Positions 11,229 through 32,000 of a stretch of DNA of 32,000 bases are shown piece by piece. Source of the DNA: Mycolicibacterium smegmatis (GTDB lineage Bacteria; Actinomycetota; Actinomycetes; Mycobacteriales; Mycobacteriaceae); NCBI RefSeq assembly GCF_001457595.1, contig NZ_LN831039.1, positions 6,300,001-6,332,000 on the forward strand, in the 5' to 3' direction. The notes below the pieces were generated by a model that was not told where the DNA came from, did no database searches, and saw nothing but the letters and a program-made list of their open reading frames with translations. The position numbers were made by a program, and so were the translations under genes. The stretch's first letter is position 1; every line of letters begins with the position of its first letter.

Positions 11229-11417
11229 CACAAACTCCGAGGTGAGAGAGCGAGAAAAGAAAACGTCTCGTCACCGCGGCCGGCCCCCGTGGGGCTGGGA
11301 CTGCGCTCAGTGATTCAGGGGGCTGACGGCGTGACCGAAAGCCCCCACCTTGGATGCCTCAGGGCTCGACATGACGCGAACACTAGCCACGGCACCGCTG
11401 ACCACGCAACCCTGTTT

Positions 11418-13495: not shown

Positions 13496-13506
13496 GGGGC
13501 GTCCTT

Positions 13507-14190
13507 TCACAGGGGTGTCACGACGACGTGGGCGTCGCGGACGTCGACGAGGTGCCGGTCCGGGATGTCCGACCAGCCGGGATCGTCGTCGTAGGGTTCG
13601 CTCGCGAGGACGACGCCGTCGGGGCGGCGCAGGACCGACAGCGTGTCCCCCCAGGTGGTGGCGAGCAGCCGGGAACCGTTGGCGGCCAGGATGTTCAACC
13701 GCGCGTTCGGGTCGAGTTCGCCGACCTCGGCGATGGTGGCGCCGAGCGCGTCGAGGCCACGGGAGAAGATGAGCGCCGCGAGGATCGCGCTGTCCACCGT
13801 GGACTCGGCGGCACCGGTCAACGGGAGCACCCCGCGGTCGACCAGGCCGTTGTGCGACAGCAGCCACTGCCCGTCGCTGAACGGCGCCGACGCCGACGGT
13901 TCGATGGGCATACCGATGGTGGCCGAGCGCACCGCGGCCACCACACAGCGACTGCGCAGCGCTGGTGCCACCGACGCGAACGACGCATCACCCCACAGCG
14001 GTTTGTCGCTGCGCCAGCGGCGGGCCACTCCATCGTCGTCGAAAAACCCTGCGCCCCAACCGTCGGCGTTCATCAGACCGTGCTTCTGTCGTCGCGGTGC
14101 GTAGGACTGCACCAGCAGTCCCTGCGGCGGGTCGAGCACCAGGTCGGCCAACGACCGCGGCGCGCCCAGCCACGCCACATGCCGGCACAT
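13507..14190 (-). CDS. egtC: Class II (Ntn) glutamine amidotransferase, gamma-glutamyl-hercynylcysteine sulfoxide hydrolase
   Basis: 227 aa beginning MCRHVAWLG, with the Cys2 nucleophile. The ATG at 14190 overlaps the egtB TGA (TGATG). Confidence 0.85.
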
Positions 14191-15476: not shown

Positions 15477-16750
15477 AGCTCACCTTTCGCCAGTTCCCGG
15501 ACGGCGGCGGCGATTCCGCGTGCCACCACCCGGTCCGAGAAGTCGTCGGCGGGACTACGCCTCTGCTGGACCGAACGCATCAACAGCGTCATCGATTCCT
15601 CGAGTTCGGCCGGTGCCCGCTCCGCCGCGAGCCGCACGCACGTCAGGGCCGCGGTGTGCAGATGTCGGTCCGTCAGGCCCATCCGCGCGGCGCGGTCCCA
15701 GGCTGTGGCGACTGGACGTGTTGCCTCAGCGGCACTTTCGGCCGCGACAGGATCGTCGAGCAATGTGGTGAGGGTGAACACAGCGGCCGGCCACAGCGCG
15801 TCGGGCACGCTGTCGAGATAGCGGATCTCCAGCCAGCGGCGCGGCCGCACCGGCGGGAACAGCGTCGTCAGGTGATAGTCCAGGTCGGCCTCGGTCGGTC
15901 TGCGTCCACCCAGCACGGCGCGCCCGTCGGCCCAGTCCGCGAACGGCACCCAGTTGGTCACGGGCACCGCGTCCGGAGAGTTCACCAGCATCACCGGCGC
16001 GCGCAGCGCGTAGCGCGCCCATTCGGAGGCGGGATCGTCGCCGTCCACACCCAGCACCGGCCCGCACCGCGCCGAGTCGAGCTGCCCCCACACGCGTTGC
16101 CGCGTCGAACACCAGCCCGTGAACTGTCCACCCAGCATCGGTGAGTTGGCGGTGATCGCGATCATCGTGGGCCCCAGCGCATGTGCCAACCGGACCCGCT
16201 CGGCCCAGCCGTCGCGCGGACCGGCATCCAGGTTGACCTGCACCGACGCGGTTGCCGTCATCATCGCGGCGCCGGCCTCGGCGGTACCGCTCGCGGTGAA
16301 GAACTGTTCCATGGCCGAGTAGCGCGCACCCGGGTTGACCCGGCGGGTCGGCCGCAGCGGATCGGTGCCGAGCAGCACCAGGCCAAGATTCCTGCGGGCG
16401 AACTCCGCACGCAGCACAGCACGGTCGGCCTGCAGCGCGGCGACCGCGGCGAGCGGACCGTCGTACGGCGGACCGGACAGTTCGACCGCGCCGCCGGGTT
16501 CCACGGTGATCCGGCTGCCACCGGGCAGTGGCGGTACGTCCGCGATCACGGCGGACAGTTCGTCCCAGCTCGGTCGCCGCGTCGGATTGCTCAGGTCGAA
16601 ACAGTGCGCCTCGATCTCCAGGCCCACCCGGCCGATCGGACCGTCCTGCAGGCTGTTGGCACCGATGTGGGCGGCGGCCTGCTCCGCACTGGTGAACTCG
16701 ACCGGAACCGCACAGCCAGAATCACTTCTGGCGGGTAAGGCCATGACCAA
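15473..16750 (-). CDS. egtA: Glutamate-cysteine ligase (GCS2 family)
   Basis: About 423-425 aa (RVGLEIEAH..., ASVQVNLD). It is the first gene of the egt operon. The start is either TTG 16750 or ATG 16744, downstream of GGGAGGG. Confidence 0.85.
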
Positions 16751-16860
16751 CCGTCCCTCCCAGTCCCCTGCCGGACCGTCTGGTTCTTCTCCATCTTCCA
16801 GATCAGACCGACAAAGTTCGCGTCTTTATTCGTGACAGGTCGGTGACGGTTGCGGGCCGG

Positions 16861-17514
16861 TTATTGCCCCAGGGTGTTCTGCATGGCCCCGGCCAGCACG
16901 TTGACCGCGGGGCCTCCGTTGCCGGATTGGCACACTTTTGCCTGCAGCAGAACGTTTTCGCGCTTCCGGGTGGTGTTGAAACACCGCCGGTCGGTGGCCG
17001 CCTCCTGCTTGACCCAGTCGGCGTCGGCCGGGCCCGCCGGCCCGCCGGTGAACGTCCACACCTCGGTGTGGAAGTTGTCCAGATGCATCGCCGTGGTCTG
17101 CCCCGCGCATCCGACGGTGCGGTCGACGACGCGATGGTAGGCGCGGTCGGCCGCGTCGACGGTGGCGAACACCCCGACGGCCTGCTTCACCAGGTGTGTG
17201 GCGTCGCCCGCCGCGGTCTGGGCAGTGGCACCGCCGAAGGACGCCAGGTCGGGGTCGTTGAACACCTCGGGCAGGCCGATGTCGGCCCAGTTGTTGCACA
17301 CGGGGTTGTCGACGGAGAACGCCTGGAACGGCGCGGTGAACTCGGACTCCCAGCGGATGGGGGCGCCGACGATGTTGCTCACCGAACCCTTCGGCATGAC
17401 GGCGTAGGACACCACACCGGGATCCGACGGCCGGGCCGCAGCAGGTGCCACTGACGCCAGGACAAGTCCAGCCACCCCGAGACTCACAGTCACGGCACGC
17501 ATGGGCTCGATCAT
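16861..17514 (-). CDS. Secreted protein, possibly a PknH_C-type extracellular sensor domain
   Basis: The internal ATG at 17514 gives a signal peptide (MIEPMRAVTVSLGVAGLVLASVAPAAA/RP) and four Cys in the mature part. The family call is from memory only. Confidence 0.6.
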   Translation of the reverse strand: MIEPMRAVTVSLGVAGLVLASVAPAAARPSDPGVVSYAVMPKGSVSNIVGAPIRWESEFTAPFQAFSVDNPVCNNWADIGLPEVFNDPDLASFGGATAQTAAGDATHLVKQAVGVFATVDAADRAYHRVVDRTVGCAGQTTAMHLDNFHTEVWTFTGGPAGPADADWVKQEAATDRRCFNTTRKRENVLLQAKVCQSGNGGPAVNVLAGAMQNTLGQ

Positions 17515-17519
17515 GCCAT

Positions 17520-18038
17520 TCAGTACACGGTGCGGGTGCAGTAGGTGCGTGCCGGTGACGGGTACGGCCAGGCGAACTGACCGGCGTCGTCGCCGCATGC
17601 GGCCTGGTCACGGACGTCGAGCCGCCGCGTCACCTGGACCAGCAGGCCGGGCCTGGCGGGTTCGGCGCAGTCGGCCAGTTCGACCATGCCCGCGGGCATG
17701 CCGAGTTCGTAGCAGTGGTCGGCGACGAGGTTCGGCACCAGGCACAGCCGCGCCGTCGACGGATCGGCGAATTCGGTGGACAGCTGCTGGTATTCGCGGC
17801 TGGGGCACGCGCCGGTCTCGTCGGCGACGGCGCCCACGGTGTAGCTGGGGTCGGCGCTGCAGTCCACCTCTGTGGCACGTACGGGATCGGGTCCGTCAGG
17901 CGTCGTCGCCGGGATGCTCACGCAGTCACCCACCGAGAACACCATCACCGCACCACGTTCGGGGCCCGGTTGCCCACACGCCGGGGCGAGCAGTACCGGC
18001 GCTGCGATCAGCGCAAGCATGAGCCGATGGCGCGTCAT
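17520..18038 (-). CDS. Cys-rich secreted protein or lipoprotein
   Basis: The ATG at 18038 gives MTRHRLMLALIAAPVLLAPAC, a lipobox-like signal. The mature part has 9 Cys. The stop codon lies 5 nt before the next gene. Confidence 0.65.
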   Translation of the reverse strand: MTRHRLMLALIAAPVLLAPACGQPGPERGAVMVFSVGDCVSIPATTPDGPDPVRATEVDCSADPSYTVGAVADETGACPSREYQQLSTEFADPSTARLCLVPNLVADHCYELGMPAGMVELADCAEPARPGLLVQVTRRLDVRDQAACGDDAGQFAWPYPSPARTYCTRTVY

Positions 18039-18103
18039 GGTTAGGCAGAATGTCACGATTCGCCGGACCCCGCCCAGGGCTTCAACCGAACTGAAATGAA
18101 GAG

Positions 18104-18132
18104 CCCCGGCCACCGAGGGGTCGTGGCCGGGG
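18104..18132 (-). terminator. Intrinsic terminator downstream of the fur-family gene
   Basis: A perfect 10-bp stem CCCCGGCCAC/GTGGCCGGGG with a 9-nt loop, 26 nt after the stop codon. T-rich tracts follow on both strands (minus strand: CTCTTCATTTCAGTT). Confidence 0.7.
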
Positions 18133-18157
18133 CATTTCTTCGGGCTGCAGATGTGGT

Positions 18158-18622
18158 CTAGATGGTGCTGCTCTGCGGTCTGGTCGTTGTGGCGGAGTCG
18201 TGCTGGCAATCAGCGCAAACTCCCCAGTACACGACCTCTGCCTCGTCGATCGCGAAGCCCGCCAGATCGGAGGGCTCCAGGCAGGGCGCCTCGCCGACCG
18301 CGCAGTCGACGTCGGCCACCCGGCCGCACACCCGGCACACCAGGTGATGGTGGTTGTCGCCGGTCCTGGTCTCGTAGCGGGCCGACGATCCGGCGGGTTC
18401 GATGCGCCGCACCAGGCCCGCGTTGACGCACGCGCGCAGCACGTCGTACACCGCCTGAGTCGACACCGACCCGAGGTTCTGGCGAACTGCCATGGCAACG
18501 TCGTCTGCAGTCGAGTGTGGCTGTTCGGCCAGGACTTCGAGCACCGCGACCCTGGGTGCAGTGACGCGCAACCCGGAGGCCCGCAAAAGAGCCTTGGGAT
18601 CGTGGTCATGCACTGTGGTCAC
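18158..18622 (-). CDS. furA: Fur-family regulator of the FurA (peroxide-responsive) type
   Basis: 154 aa with a GTG start. The product (LRVTAPRVAVLEVL..., QAVYDVL, GDNHHHLVCRVCGRVADVDCAVGEAPCL, DEAEVVYWGVCADC) closely resembles remembered M. tuberculosis FurA. Confidence 0.8.
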   Translation of the reverse strand: MTTVHDHDPKALLRASGLRVTAPRVAVLEVLAEQPHSTADDVAMAVRQNLGSVSTQAVYDVLRACVNAGLVRRIEPAGSSARYETRTGDNHHHLVCRVCGRVADVDCAVGEAPCLEPSDLAGFAIDEAEVVYWGVCADCQHDSATTTRPQSSTI

Positions 18623-18663
18623 AAAACCCAGTATGCGCGCATTTTCTGGAATGAGTCAAAAAG
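18623..18663 (-). promoter_or_regulatory. furA promoter (TTGACT-N18-CATACT) overlapping an AT-rich FurA-box-like operator; predicted leaderless transcript
   Basis: The minus strand reads CTTTTTGACTCATTCCAGAAAATGCGCGCATACTGGGTTTT-GTG. The -10 element ends 7 nt before the GTG. TTGACTCATTCCAGAAAA resembles the remembered Mtb pfurA operator. Confidence 0.5.
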
Positions 18664-18674
18664 AGTGAGTGTGA

Positions 18675-19145
18675 TTATGGTCGCGCGGGTGCTGTGGTCG
18701 GCGTCTCTGAACGATCCGGGGCCTGCGGACCACGGAATTCACCGCGCTCGGCCGGTGCACCTCCCGGGCCGAACATGCCGCCACCAGGCCTCATGTGGCC
18801 GGGACCCATGCCGGGCATCATCGGCGGCGGGCCGCCACGGTGGAACATCATGATCTCCGGGCGGTCATGGCCGCGGTGATGATGCCCCGGGCCGGAGTTC
18901 TTGCCCAGCACGAAGCCGGTGCCGAACACCACAGCGACGATGAACACGACGCCCGCGACGATGCCGACCCACGCGGCGGCCTGTACGACACGGCTGTGCC
19001 GGCGGGGTGCCTCGGCGGGCGCGACGGGTACTGCTGCCGGCGGGGGCGCAACCGGCGGTGGCGCCACCGGCCCCGAGGTCGCGGTGGGCGTCTCGGCAGG
19101 CGTGCCGACCGGAGTGGTCGGATGGTCAGACGGTGTTTCACTCAT
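18675..19145 (-). CDS. Pro-rich single-pass membrane protein with a His/Met-rich C-terminal tail
   Basis: 156 aa. The N-terminal part is rich in Pro, Thr and Ala. The TM helix is AAWVGIVAGVVFIVAVVFGTGFVL. The tail is GHHHRGHDRPEIMMFHRGGPPPMMPGMGPGHMRPGGGMFGPGG. Confidence 0.7.
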   Translation of the reverse strand: MSETPSDHPTTPVGTPAETPTATSGPVAPPPVAPPPAAVPVAPAEAPRRHSRVVQAAAWVGIVAGVVFIVAVVFGTGFVLGKNSGPGHHHRGHDRPEIMMFHRGGPPPMMPGMGPGHMRPGGGMFGPGGAPAERGEFRGPQAPDRSETPTTAPARP

Positions 19146-19221
19146 GCCACGAGCATGCGTCCGCTGCTCAGGTGGTGATCAAGAATCGGCTATGAATTGG
19201 CTATGAACGGGCGTCCTCGCT

Positions 19222-19261
19222 CACCGTGCGTAACGCAGTGGCGGCCACGAGCGCGTTTTTC
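19222..19261. repeat. Left 40 bp of minisatellite unit A (interrupted by the ISL3 element)
   Basis: CACCGTGCGTAACGCAGTGGCGGCCACGAGCGCGTTTTTC is one mismatch away from 20779-20818. Confidence 0.85.
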
Positions 19262-20719
19262 GGCTCTTCGCAGTTAGCAGTGGCGTTGGTGCCGGCTGGG
19301 TGTGACTCGTCGTGATCGGCGAGTGCAGGCCCACCGTACTCGGCGGCGTTGGTTCTCAGGATTGCGGAAGCCGAAGGCGATGCGCCCGACGTGTTTGACG
19401 ATGCGGTTGTAGCCTTCGGTGCGGGCGTTGGACAGGCCGGTCTGCAGGGCGGCGATGATGGGGGCCTGCCAGGTCTCGATGGTGCGGGCCAGTCGGATCA
19501 CTTCGGGCACTGTGCAGGCCGCGCAGAAACGGTAGAACCGGTCCAGGGCGGTCGTGATCTCGTAGCGCAACCCGCCGCGGTCGGCGCAGGAAAGCAGGTC
19601 GCGCAGCAGTTCTTTGGCGATCCAGGCCGCGGCGATGTCCTGGTTGGGGTCGGCGGAGAGCAGCTTGGCGAACAACGTGGCGCGTTGGTCTGCGGTGAGC
19701 CGCTCGGAGCCGCGCAGCAGGCGGCGGCGGTTGATCCACTCGACATCGGCCTTGCGGCCGCGCCGGCCCCGTTGGGTCCAGGTGACCCGGCGGCGCACCG
19801 CATCAACCATGTCGTTGGCTTTCTTGACCAGGTGGAACCGGTCGGCGATCAGGATCGCGTGCGGCAGTGCTTCGCGAGCCACCCGGGCATAGGCCGGGGA
19901 CAAATCGATGGCTACGTGGGTGATTGCGGCCCGCCAGTCAGGGTCCTGGCCAGCGAGCCAGTCGATCACTGCCGCCGAGGTGCGGCCATTGACCTGGCCA
20001 AGGAGGCCTTGATCGCCGGTGATGTCGACCAGTCCGGTGTCCCAGCGATCCACCCATACCCGCCGCCCGAGTACCGGGTTGTGTTCCCATTTGGCCTTAC
20101 CGCGTCGGGTCTCGTCGATGCCGAGCACCGCCACCGGCGCCAGCTCGCCGGCCAGGGCGTCCTCGGCGGTGGCGATGACTTCGTCGTGCACGGTGTGCCA
20201 GCCGCAGCGGTACTGCCCGGCCACCGCGGCCACCGAACGGTCCTCGTCGAGCACCGCAGTGGCCATCGTCGCCTTGGCCCGCGGTGTTACCCGCGCCCGC
20301 GCCGGGATTCCGGGCACCGACTCGGTGAACACCTTGCGCGTACAGACCGTGCTGGGGCACAACCACTTTCGCTTACGCCAGCGCAGTATCGGGCGGTCCG
20401 AACCCACCACAACGTCGCGGGGTCCGGTCTGTACCCAGCCTTTCGACCTGGTGGAGCGTTCCCCGCATTCGGGGCAGATCCCGACCCACTGGGGGGCGGT
20501 GAGCACCTGCACCAACCGGGTGCCGTCCTCGAGGCGCTGCACCGATTCGACGACCACACCGTCGAGATCGAGCAGCAGTGAACTACCGTCAACCATGGTC
20601 CGCGTTCCTTGTCCTGGATGCCTGAAGAACACCCAGCTCACAGGGGCGCGGACCCCTAATCAATCACCGACACGACACAACGTCGGACAACACCAGACCC
20701 CTATCAAGTGCGAAGAGCC
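19262..20719 (-). mobile_element. ISL3-family insertion sequence, 1458 bp, apparently intact
   Basis: The terminal inverted repeats are GGCTCTTCGCA... at 19262 and ...TGCGAAGAGCC at 20719, imperfect out to about 29 bp. The element is flanked by an exact 8-bp direct repeat CGTTTTTC (19254-19261 and 20720-20727). Confidence 0.9.
19274..20596 (-). CDS. ISL3-family transposase
   Basis: The ATG at 20596 is preceded by AAGGAA and gives about 440 aa. There is an N-terminal zinc-finger region (CPECGERS...) and the motifs LGIDETRRGK and ARTEGYNRIVKHVGRIAFGFRN. The stop codon lies inside the terminal IR. Confidence 0.9.
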   Translation of the reverse strand: MVDGSSLLLDLDGVVVESVQRLEDGTRLVQVLTAPQWVGICPECGERSTRSKGWVQTGPRDVVVGSDRPILRWRKRKWLCPSTVCTRKVFTESVPGIPARARVTPRAKATMATAVLDEDRSVAAVAGQYRCGWHTVHDEVIATAEDALAGELAPVAVLGIDETRRGKAKWEHNPVLGRRVWVDRWDTGLVDITGDQGLLGQVNGRTSAAVIDWLAGQDPDWRAAITHVAIDLSPAYARVAREALPHAILIADRFHLVKKANDMVDAVRRRVTWTQRGRRGRKADVEWINRRRLLRGSERLTADQRATLFAKLLSADPNQDIAAAWIAKELLRDLLSCADRGGLRYEITTALDRFYRFCAACTVPEVIRLARTIETWQAPIIAALQTGLSNARTEGYNRIVKHVGRIAFGFRNPENQRRRVRWACTRRSRRVTPSRHQRHC

Positions 20720-20853
20720 CGTTTTTCCGCCCTCACGTCACAAACGGCGCACCCGCCGACCACACACCCGCACACCCGCACCGTGCGTAACGCAGTGGCG
20801 GCCACGAGCGCGATTTTCCGCCCTCACGTCACAAACGGCACACCTGCCGACCA
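20720..20853. repeat. Second TSD copy, right 35 bp of minisatellite unit A, (CACACCCG)x2 spacer, and complete 75-bp unit B
   Basis: Restored unit A (19222-19261 plus 20728-20762) matches unit B (20779-20853) at 72 of 75 positions. The spacer at 20763-20778 is a tandem 8-mer. Confidence 0.85.
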
Positions 20854-21151
20854 GGCAGGCTCGATGTCCAGATTCCACTCGTGTGTGACCGTACGCAGAG
20901 CTTCGGGTGGTAGATCGCTCAGTGGCATAACTTCCCCGATCAGTTCGCCAGTACCCGCCCTTCGAAGACCGCGTCGCAGTGCTGGCCATCCAGGCGCTGA
21001 TTACAGCGAGATTGGGCCGCAGGTCTGCGAGCACCTCGCGCAGGCACGTAACATCGGGCCAGGTAGAGCGTCCGGAGACGCCGGTGCCACGTCATCGAAG
21101 CGATGGTTGAACGCGTAGAGTTTCAGCGGACAAACAACACCGCAAACGGCG

Positions 21152-21185
21152 TCACTCCCAGGGCTTGAGTGGATTCACCGCGAAC
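21152..21185 (-). pseudogene. Displaced 3'-terminal fragment of a DUF4185 gene (encodes ...FAVNPLKPWE-stop)
   Basis: It matches 26201-26234, the true 3' end of the DUF4185 gene (...YAVNPLKPWE-stop), at 28 of 34 nt. Three mismatches are synonymous third positions. Similarity stops after 11 codons. Confidence 0.7.
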
Positions 21186-21280
21186 CCGTTCGTGCACGTT
21201 TGGCAACGTTGACTCGAATTGAATGAGTCCATCAGCCCATGTCAACAGGGTTGGCGGTGTTGGCGGGCACCGAGGCTTAG

Positions 21281-22938
21281 CCTCGATCCACCGATGAATT
21301 GGCTGGTCGCAGGGTGTCGTGACGAGGAAAGTGCCTTCTGAGCTGTGATGATGAGTGTTCTCTAGGCACTTATCGGCACAACTTCGAAAGGCACTTCCGG
21401 TGAAAGTGTCCCATAGGTTCGCTGCGTCGTCGGCGGTCTTCGATGATGCCCATCTCGTGTCGTGCGCCGGTCTGGTGCCGGTAATGACGCTGGCCACCCA
21501 GACCGGGCTGTCACAGTTGCTGGCCGACAAGGTTCGTATCAGCGAACCACGGATCAAGTCCGGGTCGGCCAACCCGTCGCCGAAGCTGCTCACCGTGGTC
21601 GCCGGAATGTGCGCCGGCGCCGACAGCATTGATGACCTCGACCTCGTGCGTGGCGGCGGGATGAAGACGCTCTTCGATGGGGTCTATGCACCATCGACGA
21701 TCGGAACACTGTTGCGGGAGTTCACCTTCGGACACGCCCGGCAGTTGGAGTCGGTCCTGCGTCATCATCTGGCCGCACTCTGTGCGCGGGTGGACCTGCT
21801 GCCCGGATCCGACACGGGGGCGTTCATCGACATCGACTCACTGCTGCGCCCGGTCTATGGCCACGCCAAACAGGGTGCCTCCTACGGGCATACCAAGATC
21901 GCTGGTAAGCAGGTTCTGCGTAAAGGGCTCTCCCCGTTGGCGACGACGATCAGCACCCCCGGAGCGGCGCCGGTGATCGCCGGGATGCGGCTGCGCGCCG
22001 GTAAGACCAGTTCCGGGAAGGGTGCGGGCCGCATGGTCGCCCAAGCCATCGCCACCGCCCGCGCCGCCGGCGTGCGCGGGCAACTGCTGGTGCGTGGCGA
22101 TTCGTCCTACGGCACCCGGTCGGTGGTGGGCGCCTGCCGAGCCCACAATGCGCACTTCTCGGTGGTGATGACCCGCAATACCGCGGTTGATCGGGCCATC
22201 AGTTCGATCGACGAGCAGGCCTGGGAGCCGGTCAACTATCCCGGTGCAGTGCGTGATCCCGACACCGGTGACTGGATTTCTGATGCCGAGGTCGCCGAGG
22301 TCAGCTACACCGCCTTCGCCTCTACCAAAGATCGGTTCACCGCGCGGTTGGTGGTGCGGCGAGTCAAAGACGCGAGATTTCGGGACGCGCTGTTCCCGGT
22401 GTGGCGGTATCACCCGTTCTTCACCAACACAGACTTGCCGACCGCCGAGGCTGACATCACCCACCGCCAGCACGCGATCATCGAAACCGTCTTCGCCGAT
22501 CTGATCGACGGACCCCTGGCCCACATGCCCTCAGGACAGTTCGGTGCCAACAGTGCGTGGGTGTTGTGCGCGGCGATCGCGCACAACCTGCTGCGCGCCG
22601 CCGGCGTGCTCGCAGGAGGTGCCCACGTGGTTGCCCGCGGCGCGACGCTGCGCCGCAAGATCGTCAACATTCCCGCCCGTCTGGCCCGACCCCAGCGTCG
22701 ACCGATCCTGCACCTCCCCGAGCACTGGCCCTGGACAGAGCACTGGCTCACGTTGTGGCGCAACACCATCGGATACAGCCCACCGCTACCGGCAACAACC
22801 TGACCAACGCGCCGAACAGGCCCAACCGGAGCACACAGGAAAAGCTGGGCAGACCAGCAACTACCGCATGCCCGCAACACCGAACGCAGCAGAAACCACA
22901 CACGGACACCTCAAGGAGGGCCGCTCCACGGATTCAGG
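21281..22938 (+). mobile_element. IS1380-family insertion sequence, about 1.66 kb
   Basis: The ends are CCTCGATCCACCGATG... and ...GCTCCACGGATTCAGG, an imperfect IR of about 10/16 that begins CCT. The direct repeat CTTAG lies at 21276-21280 and 22939-22943 and extends to AGGCTTAG, so the exact boundary is ambiguous by 3 nt. Confidence 0.65.
21355..22803 (+). CDS. IS1380-family transposase
   Basis: A 482-aa ORF (DDAHLVSCAGLVPVMTLA..., IDIDSLLRPVYGHAKQGASYGHTKIAGKQ, LVRGDSSYG, ITHRQHAIIETVFADL). The start may be GTG 21355 or GTG 21400. Confidence 0.85.
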   Translation: MFSRHLSAQLRKALPVKVSHRFAASSAVFDDAHLVSCAGLVPVMTLATQTGLSQLLADKVRISEPRIKSGSANPSPKLLTVVAGMCAGADSIDDLDLVRGGGMKTLFDGVYAPSTIGTLLREFTFGHARQLESVLRHHLAALCARVDLLPGSDTGAFIDIDSLLRPVYGHAKQGASYGHTKIAGKQVLRKGLSPLATTISTPGAAPVIAGMRLRAGKTSSGKGAGRMVAQAIATARAAGVRGQLLVRGDSSYGTRSVVGACRAHNAHFSVVMTRNTAVDRAISSIDEQAWEPVNYPGAVRDPDTGDWISDAEVAEVSYTAFASTKDRFTARLVVRRVKDARFRDALFPVWRYHPFFTNTDLPTAEADITHRQHAIIETVFADLIDGPLAHMPSGQFGANSAWVLCAAIAHNLLRAAGVLAGGAHVVARGATLRRKIVNIPARLARPQRRPILHLPEHWPWTEHWLTLWRNTIGYSPPLPATT

Positions 22939-22987
22939 CTTAGTTAGGCTACTGGGGACGCACTGCGGACGGAGGCCGAGCGCTCCT

Positions 22988-23752
22988 TTAAGGACAAGCT
23001 CCGCCGGTCACCGGGCAGATTCGTGGGTCGTAGTCTCGCTTCAAACGAGTCTTGATGAACTCGGCGTTGTTCCCATACCCCGGCGAGAGCCAGCGGCCGA
23101 CGACCATCACACTCACGTATCTAGCCCCCGCGGCTCGTAGCGTAAGCGCGGCCGACTGAGTTCTGGATCCGGTTGTCCATGTGTCATCGAGCACCAAGAT
23201 GTGCTTGCCGCTCAAGTCTTGCGGCGGTGCGATAACGAACTGGGTGCCTGCGACGATGCGATTGCTAGTCGCCGTCGCCGCGGGCACGAGGCTCAGCTGA
23301 TCGCTGATGGCGTTCATTTCTCTTGTGATCGCGGCGAATGGATGGACGCCGGGGCGATTGCTCAGTGAGGGAACCATCACCCGTCTGTACACAGGTTGCC
23401 CAACACGTTTTTCAATACAGTTCTGGTGCAACATGATTCCGAGGTAGAGCGCGCGCCGGATAACCATGCTGTGCTGCTGGCGCGCTACTTCGCTGACGTC
23501 GTCTTTGTAGTGGCGCAGCAGGATCCCGGACTGGGTTCGCTCGGCCGCGTATGTGAGAGGAGCTACGAGGTCCGCTATGCCGGCCGTGTATTGGTGCTGG
23601 TTGCACCGGTAGCAGCGGTCGTAGTCATCGACCGGTGTGCAGCAGACTGCGCATGTGATACGCGTTTCCCGGATCACATTCCGGAGATAGCCGCCAGCCT
23701 GCTGTACGAGTAGATGCTCGTTGTGGACGACTGGATCCCTCGTTCTGGTCAA
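22988..23752 (-). CDS. ComF-like phosphoribosyltransferase with an N-terminal CxxC-x9-CxxC zinc finger
   Basis: 254 aa. The zinc finger is CAVCCTPVDDYDRCYRC. The PRPP-binding loop is HILVLDDTWTTGSRTQSAALTLRAAGA. There is a Cys-containing tail (RICPVTGGACP). The TTG start overlaps the stop codon of the upstream DprA-like gene (TTGA at 23749-23752). Local GC is lower than in the core genes. Confidence 0.8.
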   Translation of the reverse strand: MTRTRDPVVHNEHLLVQQAGGYLRNVIRETRITCAVCCTPVDDYDRCYRCNQHQYTAGIADLVAPLTYAAERTQSGILLRHYKDDVSEVARQQHSMVIRRALYLGIMLHQNCIEKRVGQPVYRRVMVPSLSNRPGVHPFAAITREMNAISDQLSLVPAATATSNRIVAGTQFVIAPPQDLSGKHILVLDDTWTTGSRTQSAALTLRAAGARYVSVMVVGRWLSPGYGNNAEFIKTRLKRDYDPRICPVTGGACP

Positions 23753-24786
23753 CGTCCGTCAGGCAGTCCCGCCAACGGCGCCAAGACGCCGAGTGAGTCG
23801 TCCTCGTCCTGGTTTACGACCTGCTTGACGATGTCCATAACCTCGGCGGTGCTTCCCGCGACGTAAACGCCTGGCCGGTCGCGCATTTCGCGTCCCCACT
23901 TCGTCGCGTTCACCACAATGTCGGTCAGGATGACGGGGCGGCCGTGTTCAACAGCCACGCGCGCCTGGATTCGTGTGCCACTGTGTTCACTGGCTTCGAC
24001 GATGATCGACGCGCGACCCAGGCCGGACATAGTGACGTTGCGCATCGGGAACGACTGTTTTGTTGGCGGTGCGTCCGGAAAGAACTGAGATACCAGCGCA
24101 CCGGCTGCCGCAACCCGGTCGTGGAGCTCCCGGTGGATTGCCGGGTAGACACGGTTGATGCCCGTGCCGATCACGCCGATCGGCCGTCCGCCTGCTCGCA
24201 GCGTCGCTTCGTGTGCGGCGCCATCGATACCATCTGCAAGTCCGGATATGACCGAAATTCCCCGTTCCGCAAGGCCTTCCGCAACATTCGCGGCAATGGA
24301 CAGGCCCCGCCGTGTCGCGCGTCGTGAACCGACGACTGACACCCCGCGCTCGTCGGGGCGGAGGACGCCTTTTACGAACAGCATCGGCGGCATCTGATGG
24401 ATACCGCGCAGCGCAAATGGATACTCTTCGTCCAGCACCGTCAGCAGGTCGAAGTCTTTGGACGATTCCCACTCGATTAGCTGCTTCCACGCGACCTGGA
24501 ACTGCAGTTCTGATTCGTCACGGCTCAGGTCACCGTCGAGAGCGAGCGTGAGCAGCGGGGGGTGGATGTCCTGCCACACCGCTAGGGCGGAACCACGCAG
24601 AGACACCTCGGAGGCGATCGTGGACCACGAGGTCTTACCCGCGCGTTCGCCCAGCATCGGCGGGCGCTCATCCAGAAGAGCCAGAAGCGCGGCCCGTTCC
24701 TCGTCGGCGAATCTGTCGCCCATGCGTCGTAGCTTAGATCCGCCGTCCGGGGATGGCAGCACATCGGGGCCGTTTCGGAAGCCCAT
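23749..24786 (-). CDS. DprA/Smf-like (SLOG Rossmann-fold) protein
   Basis: The ATG at 24786 is preceded by GAGGTGGTGA and gives 345 aa. DprA core motifs are VSVVGSRRATRRG, VISGLADGIDGAAHEATL, IGVIGTGINRVYP, FPMRNVTMSGL, IIVEASEHSGT and GRPV. A longer ORF reaches 24822. Confidence 0.8.
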   Translation of the reverse strand: MGFRNGPDVLPSPDGGSKLRRMGDRFADEERAALLALLDERPPMLGERAGKTSWSTIASEVSLRGSALAVWQDIHPPLLTLALDGDLSRDESELQFQVAWKQLIEWESSKDFDLLTVLDEEYPFALRGIHQMPPMLFVKGVLRPDERGVSVVGSRRATRRGLSIAANVAEGLAERGISVISGLADGIDGAAHEATLRAGGRPIGVIGTGINRVYPAIHRELHDRVAAAGALVSQFFPDAPPTKQSFPMRNVTMSGLGRASIIVEASEHSGTRIQARVAVEHGRPVILTDIVVNATKWGREMRDRPGVYVAGSTAEVMDIVKQVVNQDEDDSLGVLAPLAGLPDGR

Positions 24787-24944
24787 CTGCGTCACCACCT
24801 CATTTCCGCAGGTCAATTGCACTGTCTAGATGTTACTGTCACCCACCGACACGCCGAGCGGTTAATGCCCTCGCGTCGGACAGCCCAGGATAGTCGCCAC
24901 GGGCTGGGGGACGCGCCGCCGGACTGTCAGAAAGGGTGATGCGA

Positions 24945-25241
24945 ATGACCATAAACGTCTATTGCGATCATGAAGGACGAAGCCCGAGGTTCACGTTCCC
25001 GAAAGTTACTGAGGACGGCGAGGCTTCGCCCGAGATCACGCGTTGGCGGCTTGATGGCAGATCGGTCGCGGCAGACACACCGGGCGCAAGACGCAGTTAC
25101 ACGCTGGCTTGCCCGGTTTGTCAGTCGAACTACCGGTTCGGCGAGGACAAGCTGATTCCCGCTCTCATTCGGCTTCGCGAGGTTGGGCAGCGCGAGATCA
25201 GCATCCAGAACTTGCAACACGCCCTCAGTCGCTATACCTGA
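24945..25241 (+). CDS. Small hypothetical protein with a putative zinc ribbon (CxH...CxxC)
   Basis: 98 aa from ATG 24945, with AAGGGTGA upstream. The ORF opens at GTG 24936. VYCDHEG ... LACPVCQ are the putative metal ligands. GC3 is about 68% in this frame. It is divergent from the DprA-like gene. I recognise no family. Confidence 0.5.
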   Translation: MTINVYCDHEGRSPRFTFPKVTEDGEASPEITRWRLDGRSVAADTPGARRSYTLACPVCQSNYRFGEDKLIPALIRLREVGQREISIQNLQHALSRYT

Positions 25242-25331
25242 CGGTTCTATGGTGAAACCATCCGAGGTTGACTCAGACGGAAGCCCCACGAATGAGCCAG
25301 ACGCGAATCGCCGTGCCGGTGTCGAGGACCG

Positions 25332-26192
25332 TTGGAACAAGACGATCCTCGCGATCGGCCACGCACAGAGCTCATCAACGGGCGGCAACTAGTGAACGAA
25401 CGTGACCAGGAAGACGTGTTGCGCGGCACCTTCGATCAACTGGACGAATGGCTGAGGCTGGGAGCAAAAGCCTTCGTTCCGGTGCCCGGAAGCGAACTGC
25501 ACATGGACGATCAAGACTGGCCGTGGATGCCCATCTCTCAACTAGCTCATGTCGGCCTGCAAGCTGCAGCCGACCACCTCGATGCAGTGCGTTTGCATCT
25601 CAAATCGCGCAAACTGTTCGCTGTCGCCGATCTGACGCTCAGCCGGTCAGCGCTCATCGGCGCATCGGCGGCAGTGTGGTTGCTAGCACCCGACGAGCGG
25701 ACGGAACGCCTCAAGCGGGCCCGAACCTTGGCTTCCTATGCCGCGAAGCATCACACGCAATATCTGATCGCCTTACACCGGTTGTCACCGGACCACGAGG
25801 CCACCAAACGCGTTGGCGAGCATGCTGCTATGCGGAAAGCGGAGCTCGACGCGAAGCGTGCAGCCCTGGGCGAACGCACTAAACTCGACACCACAAGGAT
25901 GATCAGCGACGCTGCTGCTGCGGTATTTGCCGCAGATATTGCCGCCGAGGCCGACTTGGAGTGGCAGTCGGGGTCAGGCGCGGCTCATGGCCTCGCCTGG
26001 TGCCTTCTCGGTGCACCCTCGACGGTGCAAGCGGGCCCGGTGGACAATTCCGGAATGACAGAGTTCCATGCCTCGGGTTCGATCGGTCGGATAGCGAATA
26101 GCTACATGGCCGCATTCCACTTGTGCAAGCACGGCTGGTCGCTGCTAAAACGCCGCAACTCTGTTGCGGACGTCCTGCGGACGGAAGGTTGA
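25332..26192 (+). CDS. Hypothetical, predicted mostly alpha-helical protein of unknown family (266-286 aa)
   Basis: It is the only long ORF in a lower-GC segment. The start is uncertain (TTG 25332, GTG 25392 or ATG 25503). The segment LSRSALIGASAAVWLLAPDE weakly recalls AbiV/DUF5677-type helical proteins. The stop codon lies 8 nt from the convergent DUF4185 stop codon. Confidence 0.55.
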   Translation: MEQDDPRDRPRTELINGRQLVNERDQEDVLRGTFDQLDEWLRLGAKAFVPVPGSELHMDDQDWPWMPISQLAHVGLQAAADHLDAVRLHLKSRKLFAVADLTLSRSALIGASAAVWLLAPDERTERLKRARTLASYAAKHHTQYLIALHRLSPDHEATKRVGEHAAMRKAELDAKRAALGERTKLDTTRMISDAAAAVFAADIAAEADLEWQSGSGAAHGLAWCLLGAPSTVQAGPVDNSGMTEFHASGSIGRIANSYMAAFHLCKHGWSLLKRRNSVADVLRTEG

Positions 26193-26200
26193 AACACAGC

Positions 26201-27307
26201 CTACTCCCACGGCTTGAGGGGGTTCACCGCGTACTGGATCACGCGGTAGGGCGTGCCGCCGCGTGGCCGGGTGTTCCACTGGCTGATGAAGACGCGGACC
26301 TCGTCGAGTGTCGAGGCCGGTGAGATGTAACCGCCATATGGCTGCGCGAGCCGGTTCACCTCCGGCGGCGGCAGGGTCTCGGCCGGGTCGGGCCAGTCGC
26401 TGGCATAGACCACGGTCGTCACGGGCACGGTGCCCAACTGTGTCGGGTCGTCGGCCACACGCATCTCCATGTTGCCGGTCGTGGCGTTGAAATATGACAG
26501 CACCGCCTTGCCGTCGATCAGGCGAATGCTCATCTCCCCCACGCGATCTGGCCACAGCGCAGTCGCCGGCTCACCCCAGCGCCCGGACGCCGAGGACCAG
26601 CCCTGCCAGGCCGCACGGTCGGTGAAGTCCTGCGGCGGTACGCGGTACAGGAACACCGGTCCGCTGCGGTCGAAGTTGTTGGCGACGATGTACACCCATC
26701 CGCGAGGTGACTCGGGGGTGGGGATCGGGTCGTAGTACCCGCTGACTTGCGACTGGTTCCCGCCCAGGTACGACGCCTCGCGCGCCGAACCGGGCACGGT
26801 GGGCCAACCGCTCTTGGCCGCATCGGCTTTCACCAGGCGCGAGGTCTGGGGCGTCAGATCCTTCGTGACGGTCACCATCATGTAGTTCTCGCGGTTGATC
26901 GACACCACCCCGGCGGGAAGCTGGGAACTGCCGGGCGGGGTCGGATCGGCCAGCAGCGGCTTGTCGACGCCGGAGACGCCGTTGTAGCGGATACCGGCCG
27001 GGTCGTCGATCGAGTCGGATTCGACGTGCAGCGCGATCGGCGAGTACCAGCCGCCGAATCCGACGGCCTGGCCTGCGAAGCTGTCGCCGCACACCTGCAG
27101 CACGCGGCTGGGGAACTCCATGAACTCGCACAGGTCGGTGGCGCCGATGCCGTAGTCACCGGTCGGTGTGCCGGTGCCGGCACTCGGCCCGATGCGCAGC
27201 ACCTGCCCAGGCACGAGCCCCGTGTCGGCGTGCGCGAGCCCCGCCGAAATGGCATTCCAGCAGAGAAAGATCGAGACGACGCCTGCTGGAATGCGGTTTC
27301 GGCGCAA
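26201..27307 (-). CDS. Secreted DUF4185-family protein (glycoside-hydrolase-like; Rv3707c-type)
   Basis: 368 aa with a TTG start 11 nt after the asd stop codon. The signal peptide is RRNRIPAGVVSIFLCWNAISAGLAHA/DT. The family call comes from remembered ask-asd-Rv3707c synteny and motifs (CGDSF, WVYIVANNF). Confidence 0.65.
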   Translation of the reverse strand: MRRNRIPAGVVSIFLCWNAISAGLAHADTGLVPGQVLRIGPSAGTGTPTGDYGIGATDLCEFMEFPSRVLQVCGDSFAGQAVGFGGWYSPIALHVESDSIDDPAGIRYNGVSGVDKPLLADPTPPGSSQLPAGVVSINRENYMMVTVTKDLTPQTSRLVKADAAKSGWPTVPGSAREASYLGGNQSQVSGYYDPIPTPESPRGWVYIVANNFDRSGPVFLYRVPPQDFTDRAAWQGWSSASGRWGEPATALWPDRVGEMSIRLIDGKAVLSYFNATTGNMEMRVADDPTQLGTVPVTTVVYASDWPDPAETLPPPEVNRLAQPYGGYISPASTLDEVRVFISQWNTRPRGGTPYRVIQYAVNPLKPWE

Positions 27308-27318
27308 CGGGGTTCAGG

Positions 27319-29626
<2,308 letters not shown>

Positions 29627-29713
29627 CTGATCAACCTTTCGCATGTGGGATCGAGCCGGAATGAGTCCCAACAAGGATAAGGGAGGCGCGCACCTTATTT
29701 TCCGGCCGGTAAC

Positions 29714-30343
29714 TTGGCGGACGTGACCGACGCGCCGAGTGATCGGCTGGCCAACACCAGCGTCCCGATCCACCCCCCACTCGCGGCCCGCTGGAGCCCG
29801 CGCGCCTTCGACGCCGCGGCAATCGTCACATCCGAGCAGCTCACGGCGGTTCTCGAGGCCGCCCGCTGGGCCGCGACATGGGGGCAGCGTCAGCCCGTGC
29901 GGTTCATCGTGGGGCGCCGCGGCGGGCAAACCGGCGCCGACGCGGCCGACGAGACGTTCACCACACTGGCCGGGTTGCTCAAACGAGGCAACAGCTACGC
30001 GCACGCGGCCTCGGCGCTGATCCTGGTGTGCGCAGACGAGGGTGAGGACGAGCGCACCGCGCGCTACGCCGCGGTCGACGCCGGCGCCGCGATCGCTCAG
30101 CTGACCATCGAGGCCGTGTCCCGCGGGCTCATCGCGCACCCGATGGCCGGTTTCGACGTCGACGGCGCCCGCGCCGCGTTCGGCGTACCCGACGGTGTGC
30201 GCCCGTTCGCGGTGGTCGCGCTGGGACACCTCGGTGACTACGCGACGGCCGACGAGGCCATCGCCGAACGCGACAGCCGCCCGCGTGAACGTCTGCCACT
30301 TGAGCAGGTTGCGTTCACGGGCCGATGGGGCAACCCGCTGTAA
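29714..30343 (+). CDS. Nitroreductase-family protein
   Basis: 209 aa (RWSPRAFD..., [45 protein letters not shown]). The start is TTG 29714 or GTG 29723. It is divergent from ask. Confidence 0.75.
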
Positions 30344-30358
30344 AGCGCGGTTTGAGTT

Positions 30359-30422
30359 TTAACCACGCTGCAACACTTCGCGACCATCTCCGTAACAGAA
30401 ACGTCGGTTACTGCGAGTGAAC
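30359..30422 (+). promoter_or_regulatory. Candidate GlnR boxes upstream of amt
   Basis: TTAAC-N6-GCAAC lies at 30359-30374 and GTTAC-N6-TGAAC at 30407-30422. Both fit the remembered actinobacterial GlnR pattern gTnAC-N6-GnAAC (AC-N9-AC). An extra GTAAC lies at 30392. Confidence 0.4.
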
Positions 30423-30458
30423 GGCTTGTTTCGAGCCGCCACCGTGAGGAGATGTTTG

Positions 30459-31709
30459 ATGGATACCGGAACAACAGCATTCATGCTGTGTTGCATCATC
30501 GGGCTCACGCTGATGATCCCTGGCCTGGCGTTGTTCTACGGCGGCATGGTCTCGGTCAAGAGCTCGACCAACATGATGATGATGACCTTCGGCGCGGTCG
30601 CCGTCGTCGGCCTGCTGTGGGTCCTCTTCGGGTTCTCCATGGTGTTCGGTACGTCCTACGGCGGATTCGTGGGCAGTTTCACCGAATTCGCCGGCCTGAC
30701 CGACCTTCTCGAACCCATGACCACCGTCGACGGGCTGCCGGTCAGCTTGTTCGCGGTGTTCCAGGCGCTGTTCGCGGCGATCACCGTGGCGCTGATCTCC
30801 GGTGCGGTGGCCGACCGCATGAAGTTCGGCGCCTGGATGGTGTTCGCGGCGTTCTGGGCCGTGCTGGTGTACTTCCCCGTCGCGCACTGGGTTTTCGCGT
30901 TCGACGGTACGGTCACCGAGGATTCGGTCGGCGGCTGGATCGCCAACAGGCTCGGTGCGGTCGACTTCGCGGGCGGTACCGCGGTGCACATCAACGCCGG
31001 CGCGGCCGCGCTCGCGCTGGCGATCGTGCTGGGCAAGTCCGCGATGTTCGGACGGCGCAAGCCTCACAACGTTCCGCTCACGCTCCTCGGCGCGGGCATG
31101 CTGTGGGCCGGTTGGTATGCGTTCAACGGCGGTTCGGCGCTGTCGGCCGGTAACTCCGCGGCCATCGTCATGGTCACCACGTTCGTGGCGACCTGCGCTG
31201 CGGTCCTGGCGTGGATCGCCGTCGAGAAGGTCAAGACCGGTCACGTGACCGGGGTCGGCGCGGCCTCGGGTGCCATCACGGGCCTGGTCGCCATCACGCC
31301 CGCGTGCGGCGCGGTGACGCCGATCGGCGCGATGTTCGTCGGCGGTATCGCGGGCGCGGTGTGCGTGTACGCCGTGGGTCTGAAAGACACGTTCGGGTAC
31401 GACGATTCGCTCGACGTGGTCGGTGTGCACCTCGTCGGCGGCCTGATCGGCACGCTGCTCATCGGCTTCTTCGCCAGCGAGGGCATGCCCAACGGCGTCA
31501 ACGGTCTGTTCTATGGCGGCGGCATCGACCAGTTGTGGAAGCAGGCGGTCGCGGCCGGTGCGGTGATGATCTATTCGTTCGTGCTCGCGTACGTCATCGC
31601 GTTCGCGATCAAGAAGACCATGGGCATCCGCATCTCCCCCGACGAGGAAGAAAAGGGTATCGACGCCAAGTTCCACCGCGACGCGGCGTACGAGCTCGAA
31701 TTCGCCTGA
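30459..31709 (+). CDS. amt: Ammonium transporter (Amt family)
   Basis: The ATG at 30459 is preceded by GAGGAG. The product is MDTGTTAFMLCCIIGLTLMIPGLALFYGG..., with ISGAVADRMKF, VDFAGGTAVHINAG and DDSLDVVGVHLVGGLIGTL. Confidence 0.9.
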   Translation: MDTGTTAFMLCCIIGLTLMIPGLALFYGGMVSVKSSTNMMMMTFGAVAVVGLLWVLFGFSMVFGTSYGGFVGSFTEFAGLTDLLEPMTTVDGLPVSLFAVFQALFAAITVALISGAVADRMKFGAWMVFAAFWAVLVYFPVAHWVFAFDGTVTEDSVGGWIANRLGAVDFAGGTAVHINAGAAALALAIVLGKSAMFGRRKPHNVPLTLLGAGMLWAGWYAFNGGSALSAGNSAAIVMVTTFVATCAAVLAWIAVEKVKTGHVTGVGAASGAITGLVAITPACGAVTPIGAMFVGGIAGAVCVYAVGLKDTFGYDDSLDVVGVHLVGGLIGTLLIGFFASEGMPNGVNGLFYGGGIDQLWKQAVAAGAVMIYSFVLAYVIAFAIKKTMGIRISPDEEEKGIDAKFHRDAAYELEFA

Positions 31710-31842
31710 TCCCGTTGATGACTCCCCGGTCCGGCCACCGCAGAAGGTTGTCCGCGGCGTCCGGGTCCGGGGATTCGTCGGCTTGCCGAAGTTTCATGCT
31801 GTGATACATTGATTCCCATCAAGAGACGACGGATTTGACCCA

Positions 31843-32000
31843 ATGACCTCTGATCTCGCCACACTCGCCGAGCAGTCGGGCACCAAGTTCATCCTCGCGT
31901 TGTTCGTCGACCTGCGCGGAAAGCCTTGCGCCAAGCTGGTTCCCGTCGAGGCCATCGACATGCTGGCCACCGAGGGCGTCGGCTTCGCCGGCTACGCCGT
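31843..32000 (+). CDS. Glutamine synthetase-like protein, N-terminal part (3' end outside the window)
   Basis: The ATG at 31843 opens a frame that runs to the window end. The product MTSDLATLAEQSGTKFILALFVDLRGKPCAKLVPVEAIDMLATEGVGFAGYA has the typical GS N-terminal beta-grasp. Its position downstream of amt matches the M. smegmatis amt1-glnT arrangement as I remember it. Confidence 0.6.
   Translation, partial: MTSDLATLAEQSGTKFILALFVDLRGKPCAKLVPVEAIDMLATEGVGFAGYA

Follow-up and report, generated by a model that had tools for sequence, protein, structure and literature searches.

The coupled gene pair and its insertion

We analyzed 32,000 nucleotides (nt) of Mycolicibacterium smegmatis DNA (RefSeq assembly GCF_001457595.1, contig NZ_LN831039.1, positions 6,300,001 to 6,332,000 of the forward strand), referred to below as the window, with a focus on two adjacent minus-strand genes encoding a DprA-like protein and a ComF-like zinc-ribbon phosphoribosyltransferase (PRTase) (Table 1). 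The stop codon of the first gene overlaps the start codon of the second at the junction ...GGA CGT TGA / TTG ACC AGA..., confirming the TTGA overlap described in the original prediction, and the two genes, the DprA-like one preceding that for the PRTase, make up an operon with translational coupling. A scan for sigma-70 promoters 5′ of the operon found none, a result that is uninformative for mycobacteria. The longest form of the DprA-like open reading frame (ORF) spans 23749–24822 and begins with GTG at 24822 (357 amino acids, aa). Of the two ATG codons considered as starts, the one at 24786, preferred in the original prediction, has GAGGTGG just upstream, and the one at 24723 is the choice of the NCBI Prokaryotic Genome Annotation Pipeline (PGAP) and matches the methionine that opens the conserved part of the family alignment. 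The motifs listed earlier were all found in the ORF translations: GSRRATRRG, SGLADGIDGAAHEA, FPMRNVTMSGL and VEASEHSGT in the DprA-like protein, and VLDDTWTTGS in the PRTase together with the CxxC-x9-CxxC finger, which reads C34-x2-C37-x9-C47-x2-C50. Both proteins are identical to database entries (CKI49381.1 and CKI49405.1). In public annotations the PRTase appears in shortened forms, of 229 aa (Sanger) and of 148 or 159 aa as a "hypothetical protein" (PGAP, on identical DNA, e.g., CP082846.1); PGAP calls are too short (148–229 aa across the annotations) because the TTG start overlaps the upstream gene.

The pair is carried by a 6.9-kb insertion located between a gene for a DUF4185 protein and the side of the window that holds a 156-aa ORF and FUR. 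For an empty-site comparison we recovered eight M. smegmatis-type loci via the neighboring asd gene and aligned their flanks by blastn. Results showed that the insert is missing at the same locus in seven of the eight assemblies (L007–L013), in which the DUF4185 gene is followed directly by the 156-aa ORF and FUR. In these empty-site strains, window positions 10404–19267 and 26201–32000 match at 98.4–99.7% identity and lie 18 bp apart. The eighth assembly, CP082846.1 (L006), carries the same insert with 100% identity, and the whole of window 17319–32000 is 100% identical to it. The composition of the insert also differs from its surroundings: its GC content is 0.61–0.63 vs. 0.66–0.70 in the flanks, and the GC content at third codon positions of the pair is 0.71–0.72 vs. 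0.80–0.92 in core genes, in agreement with the lower-GC DNA noted at the outset. Because the 6.9-kb insert is missing at the same locus in seven of eight assemblies, the pair is accessory cargo of a strain-variable insertion and does not represent the housekeeping competence genes, as had been proposed. Nor is it syntenic across mycobacteria, the locus being empty in these seven assemblies and the genomic contexts elsewhere being different.

Table 1. Features of the gene pair and of the insertion (window coordinates).
Feature	Position	Strand	Remarks
PRTase gene, ComF-like zinc-ribbon phosphoribosyltransferase	22988..23752	-	254-aa ORF, TTG start; candidate toxin/effector
C-terminal Cys pair C246, C253 of PRTase	22994..23017	-	family-specific; invariant in close homologs
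PRPP-binding loop D189-D190-T-W-T-T-G195	23168..23188	-	DDxWTxG; predicted binding of phosphoribosyl pyrophosphate (PRPP)
H109/C112 of PRTase	23417..23428	-	invariant in close homologs
N-terminal 4-Cys zinc ribbon (C34, C37, C47, C50)	23603..23653	-	invariant in 40 close homologs
TTGA stop/start overlap	23749..23752	-	4 nt; read from sequence; translational coupling
DprA-like gene	23749..24786	-	ATG 24786 (345 aa) or ATG 24723 (324 aa); candidate antitoxin/single-stranded DNA sensor
Variable acidic C-terminal tail of DprA-like protein	23752..23799	-	predicted disordered (pLDDT < 50), residues 309–324 of the 324-aa form; poorly conserved
DprA Rossmann (SLOG) core domain	23908..24459	-	Pfam match, residues 122–305 of the 357-aa ORF
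Strain-variable insertion	19268..26200	.	6.9 kb; between 156-aa ORF/FUR side and DUF4185 gene; empty-site comparison
ISL3-family insertion sequence	19262..20719	-	NF033550 6.1e-90; Pfam DDE_Tnp_ISL3; 14-nt terminal inverted repeats
IS1380-family transposase gene	21355..22803	+	NF033539 2.6e-99; Pfam DDE_Tnp_1_4
orf101	24936..25241	+	divergent from pair; CPVC motif; probably outside the module
orf286	25332..26192	+	carried by mobile elements as cargo independent of the pair; 46 homologs (Mycobacterium, Nocardia)

The two encoded proteins

The DprA-like protein matched the Pfam domain DNA_processg_A with an E value of 2.9e-56 and is composed of a helical N-terminal domain, the Rossmann/SLOG core and a variable acidic tail. 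Its AlphaFold2 model reached a predicted local distance difference test score (pLDDT) of 90.2 and a predicted template modeling score (pTM) of 0.87. In Foldseek searches this model matched S. pneumoniae DprA, R. palustris DprA and E. coli ShosA, the DprA-like partner in the ShosTA defense system, about equally. The best match in the PDB was S. pneumoniae DprA 3UQZ (phmmer 1.8e-31; Foldseek 1.3e-20), and ShosA (8zva) was aligned at 7.6e-19 over 316 columns. Three arginines of ShosA, R139, R234 and R261, are needed for binding of single-stranded DNA (ssDNA) and for antitoxin activity (PMC12961424); their equivalents R134, R228 and R255 are invariant in the DprA-like protein, and housekeeping Smf also has them. 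With DprA/Smf (3UQZ; E. coli Smf) the protein shares the Rossmann/SLOG core, the N-terminal helical domain and these ssDNA-binding arginines. It differs from them in lacking the C-terminal extension of Smf, in being coupled to a PRTase on mobile DNA, and in scoring under the cut-off of the NCBIfam dprA equivalog TIGR00732 (173.6 vs. 191.15 bits).

The PRTase had no Pfam domain match, and its AlphaFold2 model was obtained with a pLDDT of 94.3 and a pTM of 0.91. We detected 358 homologs at E ≤ 0.001, most of those listed being 250–257 aa long, and in an exhaustive search with the family profile 253 clusters, each represented at 50% identity, reached E ≤ 1e-30. Conservation of the homologs over their full length supports a 254-aa product with the overlapping TTG start. 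The cysteines of the N-terminal ribbon are kept also in distant homologs (28–37% identity) and in E. coli YhgH, and the ribbon corresponds to the 4-Cys zinc finger of ComFC (PMC9005727); that it lends the PRTase nucleic-acid or partner binding of its own is a speculative suggestion. In the predicted PRPP-binding loop, residues D189, D190, W192, T193 and G195 are invariant among 40 homologs. D189 and D190 align to D331 and D332 of ShosT, the PRTase of ShosTA, whose mutation abolishes toxicity (PMC11961720, PMC12961424). H109, C112, C246 and C253 are largely kept in distant homologs, in addition to being invariant in the close ones, and the C-terminal extension is absent from ComF/YhgH. Judged from this pattern, H109/C112 and C246/C253 may form a second metal site.

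The label of a ComF-like zinc-finger PRTase, given to the second gene from its motifs, held up in profile comparisons. Alignment of the PRTase family to E. coli YhgH/GntX with hhalign gave a probability of 95.2% (E 2.9e-8) over 174 columns that extend from the CxxC...CxxC finger up to the C-terminus, vs. 80% over 57 columns for the alignment to ShosT. Foldseek found no close solved structure (template modeling score, TM, ≤ 0.39); among the matches listed, ShosT 8zvb had the lowest root-mean-square deviation and the highest identity, and H. pylori ComFC 7p0h gave the longest alignment (231 columns). The PRTase thus has in common with ComFC/ComF (YhgH/GntX; H. pylori ComFC 7P0H) an N-terminal CxxC...CxxC finger followed by a type I PRTase domain with a DDxxTTG PRPP loop. 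Unlike these proteins, it has an extra long helix and the C-terminal extension, which together carry H109, C112, C246 and C253. It also shows low structural similarity to them (TM 0.39) and scores far under the NCBIfam family cut-offs (comF TIGR00201, 19.4 vs. 233.55; GntX NF008616, 18.7 vs. 304). Its gene is mobile, varies between strains and has no link to competence genes.

Genomic contexts and other content of the insertion

Manual inspection of 13 further contexts placed the DprA-like gene directly upstream of the PRTase gene every time, and of the 51 metagenomic loci having enough upstream sequence, 45 show this arrangement. This linkage holds down to 26–33% PRTase identity, and overlaps of 1–11 nt or gaps of 7–11 nt at the gene junction recur in most annotated loci. 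In M. interjectum the pair lies beside a Prim-Pol gene and two integrases, in Mycobacterium sp. BK086 beside ParAB and IS110, and two further actinobacterial chromosomal contigs also carry it. It is present on plasmids of M. chimaera, Rhodococcus, Pseudonocardia, Streptomyces and M. aubagnense, with PRTase identity falling to 26–33%, and next to the integrase and repressor of two temperate Gordonia phages, Vasanti (gp30–gp29) and Bosnia (gp41–gp40). In M. paraffinicum (MPNT01000002.1, L002 1–8768) the pair is the last cargo of a serine-recombinase/capsid element. Known and candidate defense genes were detected in several of these neighborhoods: a complete RosmerTA system lies directly upstream of the pair in one locus (L025; RmrT 3.8e-19, RmrA 7e-73), and PDC-M05A neighbors it on the M. 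chimaera plasmid. Hence, the same module rides temperate actinophages, plasmids and integrative elements, sometimes amid known defense genes. No other competence genes (comEC, comFA) were found beside the pair in any locus inspected. A scan of IMG/VR with the family profile gave no confirmed locus, and a scan of genome contigs with the single PRTase sequence returned M. interjectum as its sole match; the latter was not counted as evidence on strain variability.

Several observations concern individual carriers. The M. paraffinicum element encodes, in addition to the serine recombinase, helix-turn-helix (HTH_17) proteins, a Phage_capsid_4 protein and a Phage_cement_2-like protein, and looks like a phage satellite of the phage-inducible chromosomal island type, recalling the defense hotspots of P4 satellites. 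In phage Bosnia, gp45 and gp44 (L015 1197–3049) match the PADLOC candidate system PDC-M30 (A 1e-20; B 5e-107), the B gene matching also PDC-M41B at 7e-112. Because these A and B genes sit between the repressor and the pair, the lysogeny region of Bosnia is, as judged from profile matches, a small defense cluster. In one metagenomic locus (L099 4–4738), a distant PRTase (39% identity) ends a co-oriented run of genes for an SbcC/Rad50-like ATPase, a NurA-like protein and a 254-aa low-complexity ORF rich in Gly, Ser and Ala; this may be a different multi-gene system with the same PRTase.

Within the window, the insertion sequences (IS) do not have the arrangement first described, in which the pair would lie between IS elements and att-like repeats. 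Both the ISL3 and the IS1380 element are on one side of the pair, and the repeats of 46–53 nt (19222–19267, 20710–20762 and 20779–20853) do not bracket it. The long direct repeats were also rejected as attachment sites marking the island ends, as they belong to a local tandem duplication (about 91 bp) of flanking chromosomal DNA, and the ISL3 element has split one of its copies. This element is bordered by a perfect 8-bp target duplication (CGTTTTTC) at 19254–19261 and 20720–20727. Both copies of the ~91-bp duplication run 14 nt past the empty-site homology, so the duplication is younger than the arrival of the island. We found no integrase and no tRNA-type target within the island. Just left of the IS1380 element, positions ~21150–21180 preserve some 30 nt from the 3′ end of another DUF4185 gene (...VNPLKPWE*, the stop codon being TGA and not TAG). 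This remnant, which echoes the intact DUF4185 gene at 26201, hints that the IS1380 element and the cargo came from a homologous locus of a donor genome. A 21-nt direct repeat (18/21 identical) occurs downstream of the IS1380 transposase gene (22953–22973) and 15 nt from the right end of the island (26165–26185). Speculatively, it could be the right end of IS1380 and a surrogate end used in ISEcp1-like one-ended mobilization of the cargo; a convincing left inverted repeat matching it was not found.

The sole Rfam match was the small RNA Ms_IGR-7 (RF02469), which matched over its full length at 21282–21399 on the minus strand (111.5 bits, E 3.4e-23), antisense to the IS1380 transposase gene, whose 5′ end it spans. 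Catalogued as an "intergenic" small RNA of M. smegmatis, it looks like an IS-borne antisense or 5′-end transcript. A retron or other non-coding RNA partner of the pair was discarded, as Ms_IGR-7 lies on the IS1380 end and there is no reverse transcriptase ORF. The two remaining ORFs of the insertion, orf101 and orf286, were ruled out as extra components of the module, being unlinked to the pair in other loci. For orf101 there was no match in Pfam, PADLOC, NCBIfam or PHROG and no relatives in the libraries searched, and it is not beside the pair in L001–L005. Homologs of orf286 occur singly, beside an integrase and excisionase (L027, next to a Hypoth_Ymh/TIGR02391 gene) or beside an HTH_3 repressor (L028).

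Relation to ShosTA and alternative explanations

The E. coli anti-phage system of a DprA-like protein and a PRTase mentioned in the original prediction does exist. It was found in a P2 hotspot by Rousset et al. (PMC9122126), is the same as ShosTA (PMC11961720, PMC12961424) and has the gene order of the window pair; in the E. coli reference, a P2-like prophage, ShosA (1655–2638) is followed by ShosT (2640–3914). ShosTA is a type IV toxin-antitoxin (TA) system, in which ShosT is toxic via PRPP binding and disturbance of purine metabolism and ShosA counters it via ssDNA binding and RecA (PMC11961720, PMC12961424). The system is triggered by phage ssDNA or by host shut-off (PMC11961720, PMC12961424) and confers 10^6-fold protection against T7 (PMC11961720). 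The window pair resembles ShosTA in having two adjacent, co-oriented genes at close spacing (a 4-nt overlap here), the PRTase gene following the DprA-like one, and in its carriage by prophages and other mobile elements. Both have the Asp-Asp PRPP motif in the PRTase and the three ssDNA-binding arginines in the DprA-like protein, the latter not being discriminating. A disordered C-terminal tail is predicted for the window DprA-like protein and, in E. coli, makes ShosA unstable (PMC11961720). Three known systems, ShosTA, PsyrTA and RqlHI, have a DprA-like protein as their antitoxin (PMC9122126).

In the light of these data, we favor, with a probability of about 0.58, the explanation that the pair is a mobile ShosTA-like toxin-antitoxin or abortive-infection module, with the ComF-type PRTase as a PRPP-dependent effector and the DprA-like protein as an antitoxin and sensor linked to ssDNA and RecA. 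By analogy with E. coli ShosTA, we infer that the PRTase would bind PRPP and, if left unchecked, would perturb nucleotide metabolism, leading to replication stress and DNA damage. The DprA-like protein would counter it indirectly, as a type IV antitoxin, via ssDNA binding and RecA recruitment. Phage infection would then free the toxicity, either through titration of the DprA-like protein by phage ssDNA or through a stop in the resupply of a labile antitoxin, and the infected cell would die or arrest, so that the variant would protect against phage in the manner of its E. coli counterpart. The effector of this variant would be a compact ComF-like PRTase devoid of the N-terminal pyrophosphatase domain of ShosT. 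The mechanism proposed originally, sensing of invading ssDNA by the DprA-like protein or the zinc finger and depletion of PRPP or nucleotides, or synthesis of a nucleotide-derived signal, by the PRTase, resembles the published ShosTA models, except that the DprA-like protein of the characterized ShosTA is an antitoxin and not an activator.

A number of findings weigh against this explanation. The ShosT protein (424 aa) consists of an N-terminal pyrophosphatase/HAD-like domain and a PRTase domain (PMC11961720). The window PRTase, at 254 aa, has instead an N-terminal helix, the 4-Cys zinc ribbon and a Cys/His C-terminal extension, and covers the ShosT profiles around the PRPP loop only, not over most of their length. 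Raw hmmscan searches gave it 23.9 bits (positions 288–360 of 427) and 22.6 bits (positions 162–214 of 237) on the two ShosT models, vs. 973.5 and 179.1 for E. coli ShosT. All 40 PRTase family members match these models weakly, over ~50–75 residues around the loop, and the best PDB sequence match, ShosT 8zvb (E 9.5e-5), is confined to residues 143–216. Judged by its profile, which aligns better to ComF/GntX, the PRTase falls outside the ShosT family. The ShosT-model coverage of 17–22% suggests that the pair would be missed by the detection profiles of DefenseFinder and PADLOC. The DprA-like partner is likewise not specifically ShosA-like and not separable from housekeeping DprA. The PADLOC model PDLC03961 ("ShosA") matched it at 2.6e-60 (202 bits), but E. 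coli Smf, used as a control (L019 3440–4561), scored alike (195 bits, 3.5e-58) and true ShosA reached 285 bits; on the specific ShosA model PDLC02997 the scores were 71.9, 73 and 765 bits, respectively. Because housekeeping Smf scores alike, the PDLC03961 match is not diagnostic and was ruled out as proof of ShosTA membership; it is non-specific and means a DprA fold, not ShosA. The identity of the DprA-like protein is 25% to ShosA vs. 31% to Smf and, by these comparisons, it is no nearer ShosA than Smf is. DprA and ComFC are natural partners in transformation, which is a non-defense precedent for their co-occurrence. Finally, six metagenomic loci (L037 3971–4750; also L039, L040, L047, L048 and L049; protein P0119) hold a PRTase lineage, 47–50% identical and with the zinc, His and PRPP motifs all intact, that has no DprA-like neighbor and lies between a ParA-like ATPase and a TrwC relaxase, presumably on conjugative elements. 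This lineage is awkward for the PRTase as an obligate toxin and cautions against assuming toxicity; together with the L099 run, it argues against an obligate toxin-antitoxin dependence.

A tentative and clearly less probable reading is that the pair defines a distinct, uncharacterized family of Actinomycetota modules that are mobile and serve immunity or conflict, and in which DprA and a ComFC-type PRTase were co-opted together. Here too, the ComF-type PRTase would act as the effector; it might have two zinc sites and sense nucleic acids by itself. Other DprA-like systems provide a further comparison. The partners in PsyrTA and RqlHI are RecQ-like helicases. These systems are similar to the window pair in joining a DprA-like protein with a DNA-damaging or nucleotide-metabolism partner, and the PsyrA model matches the DprA-like protein at 2.7e-28, but the window pair includes no helicase. 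The PsyrT toxin has been described instead with a PRTase domain (preprint 10.1101/2024.10.26.620412).

The main competing explanation, which we consider unlikely, has the pair as a portable DprA-ComFC partnership that handles ssDNA and RecA for its mobile element. The pair would act on the ssDNA of the element, protecting or processing it, and would load RecA or modulate its activity, be it during conjugative entry, replication of a phage, integration or recombination. ComFC binds ssDNA, acts in cytoplasmic ssDNA handling and is functionally linked to DprA-type handling (PMC9005727), and the full ComF architecture of the PRTase together with a DprA-like protein that is nearer canonical DprA than ShosA and keeps the ssDNA-binding arginines would suit such a role. 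Its best support comes from the DprA-less PRTase lineage beside the TrwC relaxase and ParA, and many carriers of the pair are plasmids; yet, the phage copies sit in the integrase/repressor region and not among replication or recombination genes, and the pair is also found as IS-associated chromosomal cargo without transfer or replication genes. The absence of comEC and comFA from the loci inspected and the defense systems that adjoin the pair also speak against it, and the validated precedent for pairs of a DprA-like protein and a PRTase is defense or TA (PMC9122126, PMC11961720).

Still less probable is an addiction module, selected to stabilize its carrier plasmid, prophage or island, with an anti-phage effect that is absent or incidental. 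It would share every TA-like feature of the ShosTA-like module and fit the frequency of the pair on large plasmids and integrative elements. In turn, the chromosomal IS-associated insert described here would gain little from addiction, the pair is co-located with RosmerTA and PDC candidate systems, and the ShosTA class is a proven defense (PMC11961720). The view of the pair as housekeeping dprA and comF competence homologs, in line with the PGAP name of the first gene ("DNA-processing protein DprA") and with a domain content that fits DprA and ComF, is effectively refuted by the empty-site polymorphism between near-identical flanks, to which the foreign-looking composition, contexts that differ in every species inspected, presence on phages and plasmids, and scores under the equivalog cut-offs for dprA, comF and GntX can be added. 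Mycobacteria presumably have a conserved dprA homolog of their own (Rv2896c in M. tuberculosis), for which our literature search found nothing.

The class of system and its mechanism are already published; what is new here is a ComF-type effector variant that is widespread in Actinomycetota and polymorphic in a model mycobacterium. The original prediction knew of no actinobacterial example and of none with a zinc-finger partner. The first part does not stand for the ShosTA class: DefenseFinder surveys report it from Actinobacteria, frequently from their plasmids (PMC10482375, PMC10023795), and 19 Streptomyces plasmid records carry canonical long ShosT homologs. The second part stands for function: our literature search yielded no description of the zinc-ribbon ComF-like form as a defense or TA system, the pair being annotated only descriptively in Gordonia phages. 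For raw PADLOC profile matches there is a lesson for annotation, as PDLC03961 alone cannot part ShosA from ordinary DprA.

ShosTA is among the few defense systems that use nucleotide-metabolism toxicity countered by a recombination mediator, and its acceptor substrate and trigger are debated. A compact variant that has no pyrophosphatase domain and carries a ComF-type zinc ribbon would reveal which parts of ShosT are dispensable. M. smegmatis strains differ naturally in whether they have this variant, which also occurs in genetically tractable Gordonia phages, and it ties a defense system to the unsolved biochemistry of ComFC. If the pair does represent a co-opted DprA-ComF family, a toxicity or defense phenotype would be the first genetic handle on the PRPP-binding domain of ComF-family proteins, and the coupling of DprA and ComF would be an ancient functional unit reused in immunity. 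For mycobacteria, the pair is a candidate native anti-phage system, relevant to phage therapy and to the choice of hosts for phage hunting.

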